A DNA stretch of 58,745 bases, the filler included, from Dimargaris cristalligena (taxonomy: Eukaryota): assembly GCA_003614675.1 (NCBI GenBank). It is 7 parts of 7 records of this genome, joined end to end, with 100 filler letters (N's around TTAATTAATTAA, not from the genome) between each part and the next. Parts side by side here need not be neighbours in the genome. Positions count along the whole stretch, not along the records: positions 42,123 to 50,384 come from ML003342.1; 6 more parts are not named here. One strand, 5' to 3'. A model generated the notes under the pieces. It had not been told where the DNA came from and did no database searches. It worked only from the letters and a program-made list of their open reading frames with translations. The first letter of the stretch is position 1, and every line of letters starts with the position of its first letter. This document shows positions 8,356-56,099 of this stretch, piece after piece. The position numbers and the translations under genes were made by a program.

Positions 8356-8455
8356 NNNNNNNNNNNNNNNNNNNNNNNNNNNNNNNNNNNNNNNNNNNNT
8401 TAATTAATTAANNNNNNNNNNNNNNNNNNNNNNNNNNNNNNNNNNNNNNNNNNNN
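8356..8455. other. Artificial contig-joining spacer
   Basis: 44 N + TTAATTAATTAA (stops in all six frames) + 44 N. Confidence 0.99.
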
Positions 8456-16808: not shown

Positions 16809-16908
16809 NNNNNNNNNNNNNNNNNNNNNNNNNNNNNNNNNNNNNNNNNNNNTTAATTAATTAANNNNNNNNNNNNNNNNNNNNNNNNNNNNNNNNNNNN
16901 NNNNNNNN
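16809..16908. other. Artificial contig-joining spacer
   Basis: Same 100-nt N/TTAATTAATTAA linker. Confidence 0.99.
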
Positions 16909-25233: not shown

Positions 25234-25333
25234 NNNNNNNNNNNNNNNNNNNNNNNNNNNNNNNNNNNNNNNNNNNNTTAATTAATTAANNNNNNNNNNN
25301 NNNNNNNNNNNNNNNNNNNNNNNNNNNNNNNNN
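25234..25333. other. Artificial contig-joining spacer
   Basis: Same linker. Confidence 0.99.
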
Positions 25334-33638: not shown

Positions 33639-33738
33639 NNNNNNNNNNNNNNNNNNNNNNNNNNNNNNNNNNNNNNNNNNNNTTAATTAATTAANNNNNN
33701 NNNNNNNNNNNNNNNNNNNNNNNNNNNNNNNNNNNNNN
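33639..33738. other. Artificial contig-joining spacer
   Basis: Same linker. Confidence 0.99.
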
Positions 33739-39172: not shown

Positions 39173-40608
39173 GGTAGGAGGGAGCCGGCATGTATCCGTG
39201 ATATCCGGTCGCGGGGTTCCTCGATCCCCTACAGCCGTGAAATAGGGACCGTACTTTTGGGCCATGCGCAAAGCATGGTTATCATTTTAGACTAGGCCAC
39301 ATTGTTATATTGGCCTGTTTTGTTTAATCCTTCGCCTGGTCTGGGATTATTATTAGTGATTAATAAAAAACTACTTCATTTATTAATACGCAAGTCTAAA
39401 GGGGTCTTTGCCTTCGGCATCAATTCGATCGATCCCTGGTCTGCCGGTCGTTATCTTCATAGCCGCTGGTTTAATTCTCATGCGATGGGCCTGTTATTCG
39501 GACCGGCCTTTTCATGCACCTACCTTGTTTGTGGTCATGCTCTATTATATTCAGGCGAAATAACCAGCCTATCCTCGGCCAAACCCCCTGCCAATGCCCA
39601 GCCCCGGCTGTTGTATTTCTAGTCTCCCTAGTTTCAATCGAATTACCAGCCCCGCCCATCCCTGGCATTATTCGGGTTAAGTTTATTCGACTGCGGCATC
39701 GGCATAGCCCCACCACCCCTTTTACGTTCGAGGTCAGAGGCTAGGAAAACCGCCCAGACGCCCTCGTTGGCACTTCTGGACACTGTCTCTTTAGTAATTT
39801 CGGTTTCGTTTTATATAAATACCTCACTTCTGGCCCTTTCAATGAGCATTATGATATGGCCACTCGCTCCTACTTCTTGCATCGGCCTAACCACCGTGCC
39901 ATGCCCACCCGCCCCCTTCACTTGACTATCTTTATATAGAGTTGTTATCACCCCAGCCCTCCATGCCACGTTCCCACATACTTCATTCTCATTGCCACCA
40001 TACCCTCATGATTCGGAAAACCGTTATCGTATGTCTTTCCTTCTTGATTTTTTTTATACGACGGCACCTACGTGGTCTGCTGCTATACGCATGGTAAATA
40101 TCTCCCACTTACGGACTGGCCTTTATGGTTTGACTATGCCAACCCTTTTTACTAAAATGCGTGACCGTTTACTCTGGTTGGATGGTGCACTTCAAAGGTG
40201 GATTAATTTATACCGGCAGTCTATTTTAGGATCACTACTGGTGCTGGGATATTCAAATTATACATGAAGTAAAAATATAATAACCTATTTTTTTGGTAAT
40301 GTAAAAGAGCGGATCTCGAATTGAATCCAAAGCCATATAGAAACATTTGAGCATATAATATACACATTCGATATAATCTATACAAACATGGTAAATTTAC
40401 ACTGATAATTGCATAGATGGGTGGGCGGGGCATTCCCCACCAGATGAGCAACCTTAAGTCTCGCTACCCGCTGTATTACTGCCTCGATACCGACCTGCAT
40501 AATAGACCCCTGGCCAAGCGGCGGCGGCCAGCTATAGCCCCATTATATTTTACAGCACTCTCGGCTGCGCTCTGAAGGCTTGGCTGGTAAGTGTTTAGCG
40601 GTATGGGC

Positions 40609-41295
40609 CTAAATCGCGTGTATGCATTCGGTTAGCGCCCCCAGCCACTCTTCTACAGGCGCAATGGTCTGGCTCCGGGGATTGACCCACTTCACCCGAC
40701 CAGTCAGCTGGACAGTGGTAGTGGTAGGAGTCAGGACCGGGACCGGGGCCTGGGTGATGGTGGGGATAGGGGTGGAGGTGGAGGTGGAGGCGGAATCCGA
40801 GTTGGTAGCTATGTCGGCGGTTTGCGTCGAAACGGGTCAAATCTCGATGTAGGTTGTAGCGAAGGGGAGAGGAGGTGGAAGTAAGGCCTCAATGTCGATA
40901 CCCTTGCTATCGATCTCCTCGGCCGTCTCTGATGGGACCCAGGTGGTAAAGTCCAACGTCAGATCAGGCGTCGGCACCTGTACGTTGGCAAAATAGTTGT
41001 ATTGGGGGCGACCTATCGGTGAAGCATCACCGGACTTGAAAGATTTGTGTGCGGCCGGCTTTGTAGCTGGTGCTACGTCGACCATGATCCTCGCTGTTGA
41101 CATGGTCATAATAGACTGCGACAAGTCAACGGACTTGTCATTGGAAATTCGGCCGAGTCTAGATCAGTGGAAGTGATCCATACTCAGTTCCGCCTCGGAC
41201 CAAGTCGCCGCTGGGCTCAGCTTACGCCCCAGCTTCACCAGGGTGGGGTGAGGGTTGACACGACGAACTAAAAACGAGAGACAAGGGAATTGCAT
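40609..41295 (-). pseudogene. Probable pseudogene, one frame broken by in-frame stops
   Basis: ATG 41295 frame stays coding-like through TGA 41164-41166 and TGA 40837-40839 to TAG 40609. No recognisable family. Confidence 0.45.
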
Positions 41296-42022: not shown

Positions 42023-42122
42023 NNNNNNNNNNNNNNNNNNNNNNNNNNNNNNNNNNNNNNNNNNNNTTAATTAATTAANNNNNNNNNNNNNNNNNNNNNN
42101 NNNNNNNNNNNNNNNNNNNNNN
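42023..42122. other. Artificial contig-joining spacer
   Basis: Same linker. Confidence 0.99.
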
Positions 42123-45186: not shown

Positions 45187-45344
45187 CTCTGGAAACTTCC
45201 AGTCACTCGGCGAACCTACCCGATAGGACCGGGTGATTCGTGGAGAGTCCCCCCGGATCTGGATAGGGGGATTGTCCGACTGGGCATCGGCGACCTCCTG
45301 CCTGAAGAAGGCCCGTTAAGTGCCCCAGCCGCGAAGTATAAAAA
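45187..45344 (+). promoter_or_regulatory. Candidate heat-shock element and TATA box upstream of HSP104
   Basis: cTCtgGAAacTTCc (inverted nGAAn units) at 45187-45200 and GTATAAAA at ~45337, upstream of a heat-shock gene. Confidence 0.5.
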
Positions 45345-46031
45345 TGCCAGACTCCCCCAACGACAACGGGCTTGAACTACCCACACCTATTACTATTATA
45401 CATTCACCATCGCAGTCACTTAATAGCCTACCACCACATCTTGTGCTTTTAATTGCAGCAGTCCTCACCCCCCTTGTGCACTTTTATCGGCAATTGCCAC
45501 CTTGGCCCTGCGATCAGTATCGTCTAGCATATTATATTCATAATAGCCTTTCCTTTAACCCATTCCCGCCTGGCTGGCCAACTGGTCTCCGTTTCATCAA
45601 TTCTAGCGCCCTTGACTAGCCCAGTGTTTCACTTCGCCCATCATCCCCCGCCCCCATTGTGTTTTAGCCAACTCCAGCCGCCGCCGCCGCCGTCGCCTCT
45701 TCCACAGTTTAACTAGGATTCTCCTGTCGCACTCCACAGACTACAGCCCTTTGTTCTCAACCTCCCACTGTAGTTCTTCCGTCATCTTCCATACCATCCT
45801 ATTTTCCACGCATTGTTTAGTCAGGCAGTACTTCCCACCGAATCCAAGAGCCAGATAATTTCCGCTCAGCCTTCATCCAACACCACCGATATCACCCTTC
45901 TGTTTCAGGCCTATTTCTACGCCGACCTCCCCCCCTCCATATCCCCCCACCCTTTGCCTTTATACACTGTTCCCTACTGTCTTTTTCTTATCACTGTTCT
46001 CTGACTTGTCTGTATTTTTTTATAACCTAAG

Positions 46032-46034
<3 letters not shown>

Positions 46035-46062
<28 letters not shown>
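46035..46062. repeat. (CA)n microsatellite in the HSP104 5' leader
   Basis: Perfect CA run ~30 nt before the ATG. Confidence 0.9.
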
Positions 46063-46090
46063 GCGCACCCCTATCTAACCAACCGCCACA

Positions 46091-48790
46091 ATGTCTATCG
46101 ACCCGGATAAGTTTACCGATAAGGTCACCCGTCTCTTCCAGGAGTCCATTGACTTGGCCCGGGAATCCAGCAATGCCCTTATGCACCCCCTCCACATTGC
46201 CTCCTGTATACTGGACGACGAGGATGGCTTGTTCAAGTCCATTCTCAACAAAGCCGGCGCCGACCCCGTGGTAGCCGAACGCGAACTGAAGCGTGCCTTA
46301 ATTCGTCTCCCCGCCCAGGACCCGGCCCCGGAGGACGTGGGTCTCCACCCCGCCAGCAAACGCCTGTTCCTCAAGGCCCAGTCCATCATGAACCAGCAAA
46401 AGGACAGCTACGTATCGGTTGACCACCTTATCTTGGCCCTCGCGGATTGCAATGAATTTATGGACGCCATGGCCAAGGCCGGTCTGACCAAGAAGGCCCT
46501 CGAGGAGGCCATCACCCAGGTCCGGGGCAATCGTCGCGTCGACAGCAAACACGGCGACGAAAACTTCGAAGCCCTCAGTAAATACGCCGTGGATTTGATC
46601 GAATTGGCCCAGCAGGGTAAAATAGACCCCGTGATTGGTCGCGATGAGGAAATCCGCCGCGTTATTCGGGTGCTGTCCCGCCGAACCAAGAACAACCCCG
46701 TGCTTATCGGTGAACCAGGCGTGGGTAAAACCGCCGTCGTGGAAGGCCTGGCCATGCGTATCGTGCGTAAGGACGTGCCTGCTAATCTGCAGGCCCGTTT
46801 GTTTTCCTTGGATATGGGCTCCCTAATCGCGGGCACCAAGTACCGGGGTGAATTCGAAGAACGCCTCAAGTCCGTCCTGAAGGAAGTCAAGGAGTCTGAA
46901 GGCGGTATCATCCTGTTCATTGACGAAATTCACCTAGTTTTGGGTGCCGGTAAGGGCGAGGGGGCTATGGACGCCGCCAATCTGCTTAAGCCCATGCTGG
47001 CCCGTGGTGAATTGCGCTGTATCGGCGCAACCACCCTGGACGAATACAAGAAGTACGTGGAGAAGGATGCCGCTTTCGAACGTCGATTCCAGCAGGTGTA
47101 CGTGCCTGAGCCCTCCGTCGAAGACTCCATCTCCATCCTCCGTGGTATTAAGGAACGCTACGAAAACCACCATGGTGTCAAGATTATGGACTCCGCACTG
47201 GTGGCCGCCGCCACTCTGTCCAAACGCTACATCACCAACCGGTACTTACCAGACAAGGCCATTGACCTGATGGACGAGGCCTGCGCGAACACCCGTGTCC
47301 AACTGGACTCCCAGCCCGAGGCGATTGACCAACTGGAACGCCGCCAATTGCAGCTCGAAGTCGAAGCCACCGCCCTGGCCAAGGAAAAGGACTCGGCTAG
47401 TAAAGGTCGCTTGAAGCAGGTCCGCCAGGAGATTGCCCATCTTAAGGAGCAGCTTCGTCCGCTTAAGGCCAAGTACGACAACGAGAAGGGCCGTCTGGAT
47501 GAAGTGCGCTCCCTCAAGCAAAAGCTCGACGAATTGCGCAACAAAGCCTCGGAAGCTGAACGTCGTTACGACCTGGCCCAGGCCGCCGACATTCGCTACT
47601 ACGCTATCCCCGACATTGAGAAGCGCATCACCAAGATCACCGAAGAACGGGAACGCCAGGATGCCGAGCAGATGGCCAAGGCCGGCGGGGACGAGAATGA
47701 GGATAAGCTGCTGACCGAGGTGGTGGGTCCTGATCAGATTATGGAGGTGGTGAGCCGCTGGACCGGTATCCCCGTCACCCGTTTGTCGCAGACCCAAATC
47801 GACCGTTTGTTAGGCCTGGCCCAAAACCTGGAACGTCGGGTGGTGGGTCAGAACGAGGCGGTGGAGGCCATCGCGGACGCCGTTTTGCGTTCCCGCGCGG
47901 GTATGGCCCGGGAAAACCAGCCCATGGGCTCCTTCCTTTTCCTAGGTCCCACGGGTGTGGGTAAAACCGAGCTGGCTAAAGGTTTAGCCGAGCAACTGTT
48001 CGACAACGAAAAGTACATGGTCCGTTTGGACATGAGCGAATACATGGAAAGCCATTCCGTGTCCCGTTTGATTGGTGCTCCCCCCGGTTACGTGGGTTAC
48101 GAAGAAGGAGGGCAACTCACCGAGGCCGTGCGTCGTCGCCCTTACATTGTCGTCCTGTTCGACGAGATTGAAAAGGCTCACCCCAAGGTTCTCAACGTCA
48201 TGTTGGAAGTGCTCGACGACGCCCGTTTGACCGACGGACAAGGTCGGGTGGTGGACTTTAGCAACACCGTCATTATCATGACCTCCAACATTGGCCAGGA
48301 ATATATCCTCAACTACGCCGCAGCCCAGCATGCCAACAACTCGCCCTCGGATAATGACGGCGGTCGTTTGCCCGAATCCGTCCGTAAACAGGTCATGGAT
48401 CAGCTCAAGGCCTCCATGCGCCCCGAACTGTTGAACCGTTTGGATGAAATCATCATCTTCTCTCAGCTGTCCCGGTCTAACCTGGCCAGCATCGTGCAAC
48501 TGCAGGTGAAGAGAATCGGCAAACGACTCGCCGAGCGTGATATCACGCTGTATGCGGATGAAGCCGCCATTGCCTACGTGGTCCGCATGGCCTACGACCC
48601 CCTATACGGCGCCCGCCCGATCCGTCGCTTCCTGGAACGCAAGCTGGTGACGGAACTGAGTCGAATGATCTTGACCAATTCGTTGCCTAACCATACCGCC
48701 GTCATTGTCACGGCCAAGAACGACGATTTTGCGTTCAAATTGCGGGCCCGACCAACGGGCGATGATGGCAATGCTATGCCGGTGGATTGA
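46091..48790 (+). CDS. HSP104: Hsp104/ClpB-family disaggregase (899 aa, intronless)
   Basis: Clp-N domain, Walker A GEPGVGKT and [15 protein letters not shown], middle coiled coil, [20 protein letters not shown]. No mitochondrial presequence. Confidence 0.98.
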
Positions 48791-49669
48791 CTCGCCACGA
48801 CTGGTCTTCCTCCGTCTCCAGCCCTTTCGCCTCGTAACAGTGATGATGATGATCATGCCGACACTACTCACGTTCAAGACCAAGGTACCCTTAAGCACCA
48901 ACGTTCCGCGTCGCCGAAAACCAAAGCTACCCGCCGCACCTCTTGTTCCCGTAAACGCCCGTCTCCGGAGGGAGATGGTGTGAAGCCAACTGCGACCACT
49001 AACGGTCGCCACCATCCTCCCAAGGCCAAGAGGAATCGAAAACGCTGAATTCTGAGAGGAAGAACAGTGTGAAGCCCCCCCTCCCTTGTTTCAAGCACTC
49101 TACGCTGTCCGCTTTGACCTGTCCTTTTTCCAATCTTTTAGCTATTCCTGTTGATAACCTCCCCCACTTTCTTCCAGATCCCTATCTTTTTCTCTTCCTA
49201 TACATATTTTCATACGTACTCTACTTCTATTTGTAATCTCCAGGTCATAATTATTTTGGTTCATTTAGTTCCCAGCCTGTTTTTTAGCCACATATTTGTT
49301 TAGCTGTACTCTGCAACTGTTCTTTTATCAGACTATCATTCGTAGAATTGCATTGTTTATATTATATCCTCATGTTAAGACTCAGGGGAGTGACAGGCTA
49401 TAAATTTTAGTATTGATAGCAGCTATTCAACAATAAATCGATAATTTCAAGAATTGTGGACAAAATGCGGAGATATTCTAGGTCCAAAGCAACATTGTAC
49501 AACAAAAAATCACCTTGTGAAATTTAGATGTAGAATGAGATTAACCTAATTGTATAAGGCTATCTGAAGAATCATACCATTGGGAGAGTACCATCTATAA
49601 CCCAATATTAATGAGGCCAGGGTTACTCTAATAGGATTATATTTTAAAACCCAATAACATTATTGTTAA

Positions 49670-50023
49670 CTGACTAGGGCTAGTCACATATATGTTGTGC
49701 CAACCTTTTGAGGGGCTCCACGGCAAGGTCCTTGGGAGGGTTGGCAGAGAGAGGAATCTCCAGTTTGCTGTCCCCAGATGGTTTGCCATACTTGGTTATG
49801 TAGTGCAAAGGGCTGGGCTTAATTAGTTTCGAGGGGGTTGAGACTGAGGTAGCTTTGGGGAAGTTGCCCCTGAGTTCTCTTTCATTTATTGTGAAATGCA
49901 TTATTGTCTCATGTGCTATTGTATTATTAATTGCTAAGAGAAAAAACAGAATATAAAAACTATTTGGTATACAGAGGTGCCAAAACTGTGAACTGAATAA
50001 AAGGAATAAAAGGTTAAAAGGAA
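49670..50023 (-). repeat. Unclassified repeat family D (also 51870-52465 and 56100-57420)
   Basis: Shared core TTCCCCAAGGCCACCTCAGTCTCAACCCCC encoding NFPKATSVSTP in three copies. Confidence 0.7.
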
Positions 50024-50118
50024 TATCAGCCCTCCTACTCTAACTTAATCTAGACATAGTGGTCACCCATTCTGACAAAGGCCTTATAGCACCATATTGA
50101 CCCACCCATAGTCACCCC
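50024..50118 (+). mobile_element. 5' fragment of a family A LTR, interrupted by a family B LTR
   Basis: TATCAGCCC...GGCCTTATAGCACCATATTGA...GTCACCCC, then TGTAAAG. Confidence 0.65.
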
Positions 50119-50384
50119 TGTAAAGAACTGAACTCAAATCCTTAAAAACTGAACTTTATTTGAAAAGATAGGTGATAGAAGGGAAAGGTGATGATAGACT
50201 TGCTGTTCCAAGAGGTAGTAGCAAGGGGGAGTATTTACACTTGAAAGAGGAAGCCTAAATGAAAAGATAAATGGTGTAAAGAGAAAGGGAAGGGAGTTCC
50301 CATATAATAGTATTAGTCATCATAAAGGATAGGTAATACTCAGGTAACTGATAAATTCAATGTGAAATAATAGAAGGGAAAAAA
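50119..50384 (+). mobile_element. Family B LTR running to the contig end
   Basis: Starts TGTAAAGAACTG. Matches the 25179, 25334 and 50485 copies. Confidence 0.7.
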
Positions 50385-50484
50385 NNNNNNNNNNNNNNNN
50401 NNNNNNNNNNNNNNNNNNNNNNNNNNNNTTAATTAATTAANNNNNNNNNNNNNNNNNNNNNNNNNNNNNNNNNNNNNNNNNNNN
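50385..50484. other. Artificial contig-joining spacer
   Basis: Same linker. Confidence 0.99.
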
Positions 50485-53606: not shown

Positions 53607-55450
53607 ATGCCAGAGGGCCTCTTTGATGGCACATATAATGGCAATGTACTCAGCCTCAGCAATGGAAGTAGTAATTAACAATTGTTTCTTAGATACCCAT
53701 GAGACTGGGCTATTTGCTAGATGAAAAATATAGCCGCTTACTGATTTTCAATCTATTTTATCACTAGCCCAGTCACTATCTGAGGCACCATGTAGGTTTT
53801 ATAGTGTGTTATTGGTGGTTTCATCCATTAAATACATCAAGCTAATTGACTTTGTCCCTTTTAGGTATCTAAGGATACATTTTACTGCACACCAGTATTC
53901 TTTGGTTGGTTCAGCATTAAATGTACATAAATAATTAACAGCATATGCAATATTAGGAAGTGTCAAGTTTGCCAGGTACAATAGACTCCCCAGTAAGTTA
54001 GTATATAGTGCTTTTATAATATTTTTACCTTGTCCAGTGGGATTAGGGTAGTACCCATATTCCATTAGAGTTTTGGTGGGATTATAGTTAGCCATGCCAT
54101 GTTTCACAGGTATATTGCTAATTTATTTCCCCTTTGCAATTAGTTTCTGTTCAACTTAGATGCCTAGGATAAATGTGAGTTTGCACTAGTCAGTCATTTT
54201 GAAATGATTATTGAGAAATTTTTTTATCCAGTTAATGTCATCAGTATTAGTAGTGGCAATCAAGAGGTCATCAACATAAACAGTAAGTATGATAGAATTA
54301 TTACCATTATGTTTAGTTGTATATAGTCCATAGTCTGTTTCCAGGTGTTATAATCCTTTACTAGCCATAAACTCATCAAACATTTTATTCCACATTCTAG
54401 GGGACTGTTTAAGTTTATATAGACTGCATTTTAATTTATGGACAAGTCCGGGTTTCAGGTGTTCAAGTCCTTCAGGAGGACTCACATAAATATCTTTACC
54501 TGGTTCACCATTCAGGAACACCATTTTAATGTCCATCTGATGTACTAATAGATTATATTTAGCAGCCATCACAAGTAGAATGCAAATTGTAGAATAACAG
54601 ACTACTGGGGCATAAGTTTCAAAGTAATCAACACCCTCACACTGGTAGAATCCCTTTACTACTAGTCGACCCTTTTGTCTATCAATACTACTGTGGTGCC
54701 CCACCACATTACACTGTTCCCCTTTCCGATTTTCCCTCTGTTTTCTTCTGTGTTCATCATGGGGACATCAATGATTCCCATGATCCATTGTTCCCCTTCT
54801 CCCTTCTCTTTGCCAAGCCTTTTCCCATGACTTGGCTATGCCCGATTGGCCCATATTTCCGTCCTCTGCCTGAGTCATCTTGCTGATGACTAATGGACCA
54901 TTTTCCCTTCTGTTTTCCTTGTTTTTTCAGATAAACCATTGATTATAAATAAACTCTTGTCTGCCCTCTTGGAAGGACAGACAACCTTGGCTCCCTTAAC
55001 TATTTCTTGATCCCCTTGACCCCTGCGACCCCTTTCTTTGGAGTATTCTAATATCACCTTGGCTTCAGGTGACTATTAGTTACTTCCCAGTTTTGTTTTT
55101 CCTTTCTTTGCCCATCTTGTTAATTGTTATTAGCACCTTGGCTTCAGGTGATGAGTTAACTCTTTACCAATTTGGCCCTATTGGCACTTCACTACCATCA
55201 GGATTTAGTTAAGTAACAAAAACCCAGCAGCAGGGAATGATTTTTCAGCCTTTAGGAGGTGGGACAAGGTCCTAAATGTTATGGTTAGATATTGATGCCA
55301 GTTCATGTTTAATGGCAATTGACCACTCGTTTTTGTCCTCTTGTACCATGGCATCCTTATAGGAATTTGGACCCAGTACTGCTAATAGGGCAATGTCATA
55401 ATCAACTAAAGTCCGCTATTTATAAGTTGGAGCTAGATTATCATGGATTC
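53607..55450 (-). mobile_element. Degenerate Ty1/copia pol (RT-RNase H), split by a solo LTR
   Basis: PNSYKDAM..EW..AI..EL, KGRLVVKGFYQ.EGVDYFETYAPV, HQMD..FLNG, SLY.LKQSPR.W, YVDDL, GSLLYLA, SWVSKKQ..TSIAEAEYIA..EALW. Contains stops and frameshifts. Confidence 0.9.
54692..55191. mobile_element. Solo LTR, family C (500 bp), with 4-bp TSD, nested in copia RT
   Basis: TGTGGTGCC...GGCACTTCA termini, CTAC on both sides. Removing it restores in-frame D-G-S-I-D of copia RT. Confidence 0.85.
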
Positions 55451-56099
55451 CAGCCTGAGCCTCTACTGCTACTTGACATTTAGGTCAATGACTAACTAAT
55501 AATATATTGTTCTCTTCATCAATAATTTCAGGGATTTGTACCACTGGATATTTATCCAAATTATTATCATTGGTAGAATCCCCTGCGCTTGAATTTCTGA
55601 TGAATAATTCAATGATTGGATGATTATCCCTGGGCTCATTGATGACGTCATACTCAGTGATCGCAACTGGTGTACAGCCATGGGCAGTTGGGCAGAGGCT
55701 GCATCAGCCCCAGTACCTATTACTAATCCAAGAAGTAGTCATACTTTGAATGGATTCAAGGTCCCTGGATGATTAATGAGTTATTTCCATGGAAATAGTC
55801 CAGGGCCGAGAGTATTATTGTATTTATTTATGCTAATTGATTCTTATTTTGTTCAGCTTTCCAAATCATTTTTTCATTTTCTTTTCCATCTATTATTGAC
55901 GAAGTTATAGGTTGTCAAAATCAATGGTGATTTTAAAACTATGACTATTGACCACCTTATATTACTACTTTTATGCTATTGATGATCCTTTATGAGCGGG
56001 GCTTAGGAATAACAAGTCTCTGGTGGATTCCTTCTTAGAATTACGCCATACAACTTCTTAGTATGAATTCCGTTTATTAATTTTATCAATATCCAATAT

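Follow-up and report, generated by a model that had tools for sequence, protein, structure and literature searches.

The stretch of DNA analysed here (the window) comprises 58,745 nucleotides of the fungus Dimargaris cristalligena (GenBank assembly GCA_003614675.1), in which seven parts of the genome are joined end to end with filler letters between them, and it contains, in the part taken from record ML003342.1, a gene for the chaperone Hsp104 whose stop codon and downstream sequence are the subject of this analysis. The HSP104 coding sequence (CDS) is a single exon on the plus strand at 46091-48787, lies within the open reading frame (ORF) 46079..48790 and encodes, from a methionine start, a protein of 899 amino acids. 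Comparison with Pfam returned the domains Clp_N, AAA, AAA_lid_9, AAA_2 (1.2e-67) and ClpB_D2-small, that is, an N-domain, two AAA+ modules, a lid/middle region and D2-small in one chain of ~900 residues; this is the Hsp104/ClpB architecture, and it bears out the gene identity proposed in a first-pass annotation that had been made from the sequence of the window. The product is 83% identical to the Hsp104 of Tieghemiomyces parasiticus and 73%, 71% and 70% identical to those of Dimargaris verticillata, Dispira simplex and Dispira parvispora, all members of the Dimargaritales, its N-terminus MSIDP lines up with the N-termini of these four proteins, and the mean column identity in a full-length alignment with 11 relatives is 65%.

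Immediately past the CDS stands the stop context TGA CTC (48788..48793, plus strand, with the TGA itself at 48788-48790), which is of the leaky type, and 85 open codons follow in the same frame (48791..49045, plus strand), as far as a second in-frame TGA, followed by A, at 49046..49048; a third TGA lies 8 codons further. The translated extension is hydrophilic, rich in S, T, P, K, R and D, and contains no methionine. The stop context, the coordinates of the open frame and the peptide agree exactly with those first proposed. On the reading tentatively preferred here, which is given a little less than an even chance, these 255 nt truly code for an extension of the protein, to which ribosomes gain access by reading through the UGA in its UGA-CU context, and a small share of Hsp104 probably carries an additional basic tail that resembles a nuclear localization signal (NLS).

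The HSP104 terminus and its stop codon context

The short form of the protein ends in M-P-V-D (48776..48787, plus strand), which alignment with relatives identifies as a free terminus of the EEVD/DDLD type. The window reads NAMPVD where the four Dimargaritales relatives read SSMTID, AAMNVDY, QAMAVD and QTMAVD, and a terminus of the form M-x-V/I-D is present in 4/4 of these, with an extra Y in one of them; the remark that the short form already has an Hsp104-like acidic end is thereby extended to its relatives. An acidic motif of the Hsp104 type stands at the free C-terminus, where it is predicted to bind tetratricopeptide repeat (TPR) proteins. In yeast, the Hsp104 terminus DDLD binds TPR co-chaperones (PMC5480384), and nuclear targeting of the protein runs through its last 8 residues (PMC10770042).

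A set of 657 candidates yielded 20 Hsp104 relatives, none of which carries a tail-like extension. Because none of these relatives extends, and because the four from the Dimargaritales share both the end position and the terminal motif, the HSP104 stop is judged from the alignment to be the ancestral terminus and not a recent nonsense mutation. The letters of 48400-49400, the TGA included, are identical in contigs of 4/4 sequencing runs from 2 studies, although these runs are possibly the source of this DNA and are not independent, so that their agreement excludes a private assembly slip only. The first-pass annotation had allowed for a sense codon at this position in the reads or in relatives; the contigs of all four runs keep the TGA, and the relatives end at the same motif.

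The context of this stop is of a kind known to be leaky. In Ustilago maydis, UGA followed by CU suffices for efficient readthrough, the efficiency of which is set mainly by the first two bases past the stop (PMC4207609), and mammalian work identifies C after UGA as the key promoting base (PMC12233894). The HSP104 stop has both the C and the CU, and TGA CTC fits the fungal core motif UGA-CU as defined by experiment (PMC4207609), as the first-pass annotation had supposed of a leaky context. None of the other 12 long ORFs in the window ends in TGA-C.

Coding signature and make-up of the extension

The openness of the frame is by itself unremarkable, because a 255-nt frame of the same composition also stays open in 2063/30000 mononucleotide shuffles (0.069). 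Nevertheless, 85 codons is the longest open post-stop frame among the 13 long ORFs of the window, and the extension keeps a GC content of 0.54-0.60 where the other 12 mostly drop to 0.28-0.45 within 90-180 nt past their stops; a GC content of 0.55 is reached by just 4/252 putative non-coding windows of 260 nt. By codon position, the extension has T at position 2 (T2) at 0.07, T at position 3 (T3) at 0.39 and GC at position 3 (GC3) at 0.48, and in this it resembles stretches of the window that code for disordered protein in neighbouring genes, with T2 of 0.09-0.11, T3 up to 0.35 and GC3 of 0.40-0.45.

Period-3 was assessed as the chi-squared value (chi2) of the table of 4 nucleotides by 3 codon positions. 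The extension gives a chi2 of 38.69, or 29.85 when its GAT run is left out. Hsp104 windows of equal length have a median of 35 (range 19-52), and shuffles that keep the frame open average 6.4 (sd 3.5), with 0/1500 of them reaching 38.69. T is found 8/6/33 times at codon positions 1/2/3, a bias that is clear in four of five 17-codon segments and is already present in the first 17 codons (2/3/9), and no tandem repeat was found behind the periodicity. In sliding windows the signal runs unbroken across the stop, with chi2 values of 28.1 (48706-48960), 40.2 (48757-49011) and 32.6 (48808-49062), and collapses to 11.9, 7.7 and 4.6 as the windows move beyond the second stop at 49048; the T counts by position past that stop are 6/10/9 (49049-49129) and 38/38/36 (49130-49384). 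Outside all ORFs of at least 150 aa, a chi2 of 38.69 is reached by 1/604 windows, the one in question overlying GC-rich ORFs of the minus strand (40.6-41.2 kb), and the remaining windows with a chi2 of at least 25 all fall within a copia-like coding remnant.

Nine other long ORFs of the window served to train a codon model, which scores the plus-strand frame in phase with Hsp104 at +0.208 bits/codon and the five remaining frames at -0.15, -0.60, -0.02, -0.47 and -0.14; a 12-parameter position model likewise ranks the frame in phase with Hsp104 as the best of six (-497.2 bits; next -507.6, exact antisense -513.7). The codon score is beaten by 0.1% of composition-matched open shuffles and tops 131/136 short ORFs outside the long ones. 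On the evidence of this single sequence, which provides a new and fairly strong argument in partial support of the first-pass interpretation, the stop is thus followed by an open in-frame extension with a protein-coding signature, as expected of a readthrough gene. A test as simple as that of period-3 told the HSP104 post-stop frame from an ordinary 3′ untranslated region (UTR), so the same test could be used to screen other candidates.

The two other places in the window where such periodicity occurs can be described briefly. At 40597-41163 on the minus strand lie two adjoining GC-rich ORFs of 75 and 108 codons (GC 0.62 and 0.52) with chi2 values up to 39.3; they have the only coding-level period-3 outside the long ORFs, among short ORFs they score highest in the codon model, no Pfam family was found for either, and they may be unannotated exons. 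The copia-like remnant is a degenerate Ty1/copia-type retroelement at 53800-55750 (minus strand), with an RVT_2 domain at 54348-54767 (E 6.6e-30) and broken flanking frames, and it keeps a chi2 of 26-36 in spite of its interrupted frames (54-55.5 kb). Closer to the gene, at 49130-49650 on the plus strand, GC falls sharply to 0.31-0.35, the strand becomes T-rich and an AATAAA occurs at ~49433; the HSP104 transcript probably ends in this region, where a flank poor in genes and rich in repeats begins.

The 85 residues of the tail include 29 S/T/P, 18 K/R, 8 D/E and only 6 hydrophobic residues, and four S-P dipeptides were counted, where the first-pass annotation had mentioned several. The tail ends in the basic cluster PPKAKRNRKR (49016..49045, plus strand), which is NLS-like by motif match: the classical monopartite NLS consensus is K-K/R-x-K/R, the K-R-N-R at extension residues 80-83 matches K[KR]x[KR], and 6 of the last 9 residues are K or R. 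Of 2718 open shuffles, 0.7% contain a stretch of 9 residues with at least 6 K/R, and 0.07% have one at their very end. The basic triplet R-K-R further upstream (extension residues 54-56; 48950..48958, plus strand) stands 21 residues before the terminal cluster, while the linker of a classical bipartite NLS has 10-12 residues, so that the bipartite signal originally suggested is reduced to its terminal half. The basic cluster of the tail is therefore regarded as a putative nuclear import signal. Readthrough extensions bearing an NLS have been described in Drosophila, where 3/4 of those tested worked (PMC3840789).

Readthrough weighed against other explanations

Several observations weigh against translation of the extension. 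No homologue of the tail was found in 1.84 billion representative proteins (0 matches), a word-indexed protein search gave no word-sharing candidate of 46-149 aa, Pfam holds no family that matches it, and the ESM Atlas gave no usable match. In metagenome contigs, 593 pattern stretches for the tail were obtained and none was confirmed by tblastn, while a scan with the C-terminal 250 aa of Hsp104 had 592/595 stretches confirmed, the best 80 being ClpB-type genes of 47-55% identity; conservation is seen for the protein end of Hsp104 only. The composition of the extension also departs from that of its gene, with a GC3 of 0.48 vs 0.71 in Hsp104 and a T2 (0.07) below that of all 292 confident coding windows. 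Its codon score is lower than that of the lowest Hsp104 window of 85 codons (0.361), 5/136 short ORFs outside the long ones score as high, and five GAT codons supply 8.2 of its 17.7 bits. The compositional edge, which the first-pass annotation had placed soon after the second stop, does not coincide exactly with that stop, for GC remains at ~0.51 for ~80 nt beyond it (49049-49130); the CDS-like GC content within the extension was borne out. Moreover, decayed copia-like coding DNA keeps its period-3, so that the periodicity speaks for a coding origin and not for present translation. Finally, the 123 nt past the stop fold worse than shuffles (z +1.35), which lends no support to a local stimulatory hairpin 3′ of the stop.

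A helix of 19 bp between 48794-48814 and 49053-49075 (plus strand; -22 kcal/mol) brackets the extension and the second stop, and is seen in both the minimum-free-energy and the centroid structure of a 298-nt fold (whole-fold z -1.68). It is given little weight, because 48957-48990 is as good a partner for its pyrimidine-rich 5′ arm, and the helix may be fortuitous. A comparison of 48500-50380 with Rfam returned nothing at threshold, three matches to families of small nucleolar RNAs being sub-threshold (E 1.9-6).

As to how the extension could be translated, its frame contains no ATG, and a scan of 64 GT..AG pairs found no plausible in-frame intron that would bypass the stop; readthrough is for these reasons the simplest route.

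The alternative that fares best, although it is an unlikely one, shares the leaky stop and the low-level translation of the tail but does without targeting: selection would merely keep the product harmless, that is, hydrophilic, disordered and non-aggregating, and the basic end would be incidental. Such selection would yield the depletion of T at codon position 2, the strongest period-3 feature of the extension, as well as the scarcity of hydrophobic residues (6/85), the tail is without a homologue, and disordered readthrough tails have been proposed as a robustness device (PMC6365619). However, an early back-up stop would be a simpler mitigation of errors in a highly expressed gene than the 85 open codons found here, and the placing of the basic cluster at the very end is as rare among open shuffles as reported above.

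It is distinctly less probable that the extension is untranslated DNA of coding origin, either a young fossil, such as a rearrangement fragment beside the transposon-rich flank, or a transient stop-loss tail, not yet mutated. The copia-like remnant illustrates that periodicity outlives function, and the downstream flank is AT-rich and repeat-rich; yet a fossil would have to begin within a few bases of the stop, since the T3 bias is present from the first 17 codons, to stand in frame and free of stops over 85 codons, and to lose its periodicity at the next in-frame stop. No paralogous source for the extension was found inside the window, nor a homologue in the searches, and the position of the stop appears to be ancestral.

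An ordinary 3′ UTR that is GC-rich and open by chance is an improbable and already strained reading of the same DNA. It can draw on the 6.9% of shuffles that stay open, on the 5′ flank of the gene, which likewise has a GC content of 0.47-0.60, ORFs of 80-99 codons and chi2 values up to 16, and on the GC richness that persists for ~80 nt past the second stop, but it is confronted with a chi2 that no open shuffle and a single window outside the long ORFs attained, and for which no tandem repeat accounts.

That an alternative splice removes the stop and turns the extension into an alternative last exon is very improbable. Lacking an ATG, the extension must join something upstream, but among the 64 in-frame GT..AG pairs (donor 48400-48790, acceptor 48790-49045) only 2 have a donor with at least 3/4 of the consensus, which is here the generally known one and not derived from this genome, and both use the donor at 48550, by which ~80 conserved D2-small residues would be removed. 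Still less credit is due to a minus-strand gene (ORF 49090..48602, 162 codons, in the exact antisense frame) as the source of the coding signal. In its favour are the open frame and the symmetry of RNY-type periodicity under reverse complement; on the other hand, the antisense frame has a codon score of -0.02 vs +0.21 and is 16.5 bits worse in the position model, A makes up 7% of its codon position 2, so that the peptide would be nearly without D, E, K, N and Q, it overlaps the conserved Hsp104 CDS by 189 nt, and among 60 candidates no protein of 89-284 aa was alike at E up to 10. That the TGA is an error of sequencing, a nonsense mutation of the strain or a codon for selenocysteine, for which no support was found, is hardly credible in view of the run contigs (possibly the source), the terminal motif shared by four relatives and the lack of any match to a selenocysteine insertion sequence (SECIS) at E up to 10 in 48500-50380.

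A putative nuclear isoform and known readthrough systems

If the UGA of HSP104 is read through as preferred here, most ribosomes would still stop at it and release a chaperone of 899 aa whose M-P-V-D terminus is free, and a minority would place a near-cognate amino acid at the UGA and continue through 85 disordered residues ending in PPKAKRNRKR. In the long isoform the TPR-binding motif would be buried and would lose the free carboxy-terminus on which TPR proteins depend, the tail would supply a basic import signal of the classical kind, and a fraction of the disaggregase might in this way be found in the nucleus or nucleolus. Hsp104 acts as a hexamer, and a single extended subunit could carry the whole assembly; by simple arithmetic, readthrough of 3% per subunit would mark ~17% of hexamers, so that a low rate would mark a far larger share of hexamers because the protein is hexameric. 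All of these steps, from the readthrough event and its rate to the masking of the TPR motif, the nuclear import and the effect of the hexamer, are put forward as a model. A bolder and rather doubtful version of it holds that the Hsp104 of the Dimargaritales is under programmed UGA-CU readthrough, by which its C-terminus would switch between two modes of nuclear targeting, the short form offering the free Met-containing TPR motif (conditional import in yeast) and the long form hiding this motif and offering a classical basic NLS, while readthrough of a few per cent, multiplied by hexamer assembly, would maintain a constitutive nuclear or nucleolar pool.

The closest fungal parallel is the readthrough of the Pgk1/Tpi1 type in Ustilago maydis (PMC4207609), which also involves UGA-C-U and a minor, longer form with a sorting signal in its tail. 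The Ustilago tails, however, are short and end in a peroxisomal targeting signal of type 1 (PTS1), whereas the Hsp104 tail has 85 residues and is basic and NLS-like, and the third base after the stop is A in the fungal UGA-CU(A) cases and C in HSP104. With respect to the signal itself, the proposed tail is more similar to the extensions of Drosophila (PMC3840789) and Arabidopsis (PMC9293766), in which readthrough gives an NLS to an otherwise mostly cytosolic protein. None of those cases concerns Hsp104, and they are animal and plant genes backed by ribosome profiling and reporter tests; for HSP104, readthrough is predicted from the sequence. In mammals, MDH1x and LDHBx (UGA CUA G; PMC5133446, PMC4359377) likewise arise from a leaky UGA-CU context and amount to a few per cent of extended isoform, but they differ from the HSP104 case in their peroxisomal targeting, short extensions and conserved CUAG motif.

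Yeast Hsp104 (PMC10770042) belongs to the same family and acts as a nuclear disaggregase, and it has a C-terminal acidic motif that contains Met, as M-P-V-D does here. In yeast the free TPR-binding terminus is the signal, in aged or quiescent cells, whereas the Dimargaris tail would cover this terminus and offer a basic signal instead. How Hsp104 passes from the cytosol to the nucleus is an active question, to which the answer in yeast is the last 8 residues (PMC10770042). Were the model true, it would add a second, translational way of dividing the chaperone between compartments, in which the terminus is traded for a basic import signal, and it would be the first fungal case of readthrough aimed at the nucleus and not at the peroxisome.

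The novelty that the first-pass annotation had claimed is therefore partial. No report of Hsp104 readthrough was found in a full-text literature search, outside whose scope lie the supplements of PMC4207609 with all U. maydis TGA-CT genes, but readthrough that adds an NLS in Drosophila (PMC3840789) and a nuclear route for yeast Hsp104 (PMC10770042) have already been described. If real, the event would be a novelty both for Hsp104 and for readthrough as a route to the nucleus in fungi; functional readthrough that adds a sorting signal is already known.

Some minor observations concern the surroundings of the gene. The 5′ flank of HSP104 (45300-46090, plus strand) is C-rich, with a GC skew of -0.34 to -0.61 and a GC content of 0.43-0.59, and its ORFs of 80-99 codons have negative codon scores. 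Perfect trimers of the heat-shock element, in its generally known consensus, number 0 in the window, where 0.5 would be expected by chance. Twelve runs of 44 N occur in pairs ~8.4 kb apart (8356-8455, 16809-16908, 25234-25333, 33639-33738, 42023-42122 and 50385-50484); they look like masking rather than assembly gaps, and they cause a false dip to very low GC near 50.4 kb.

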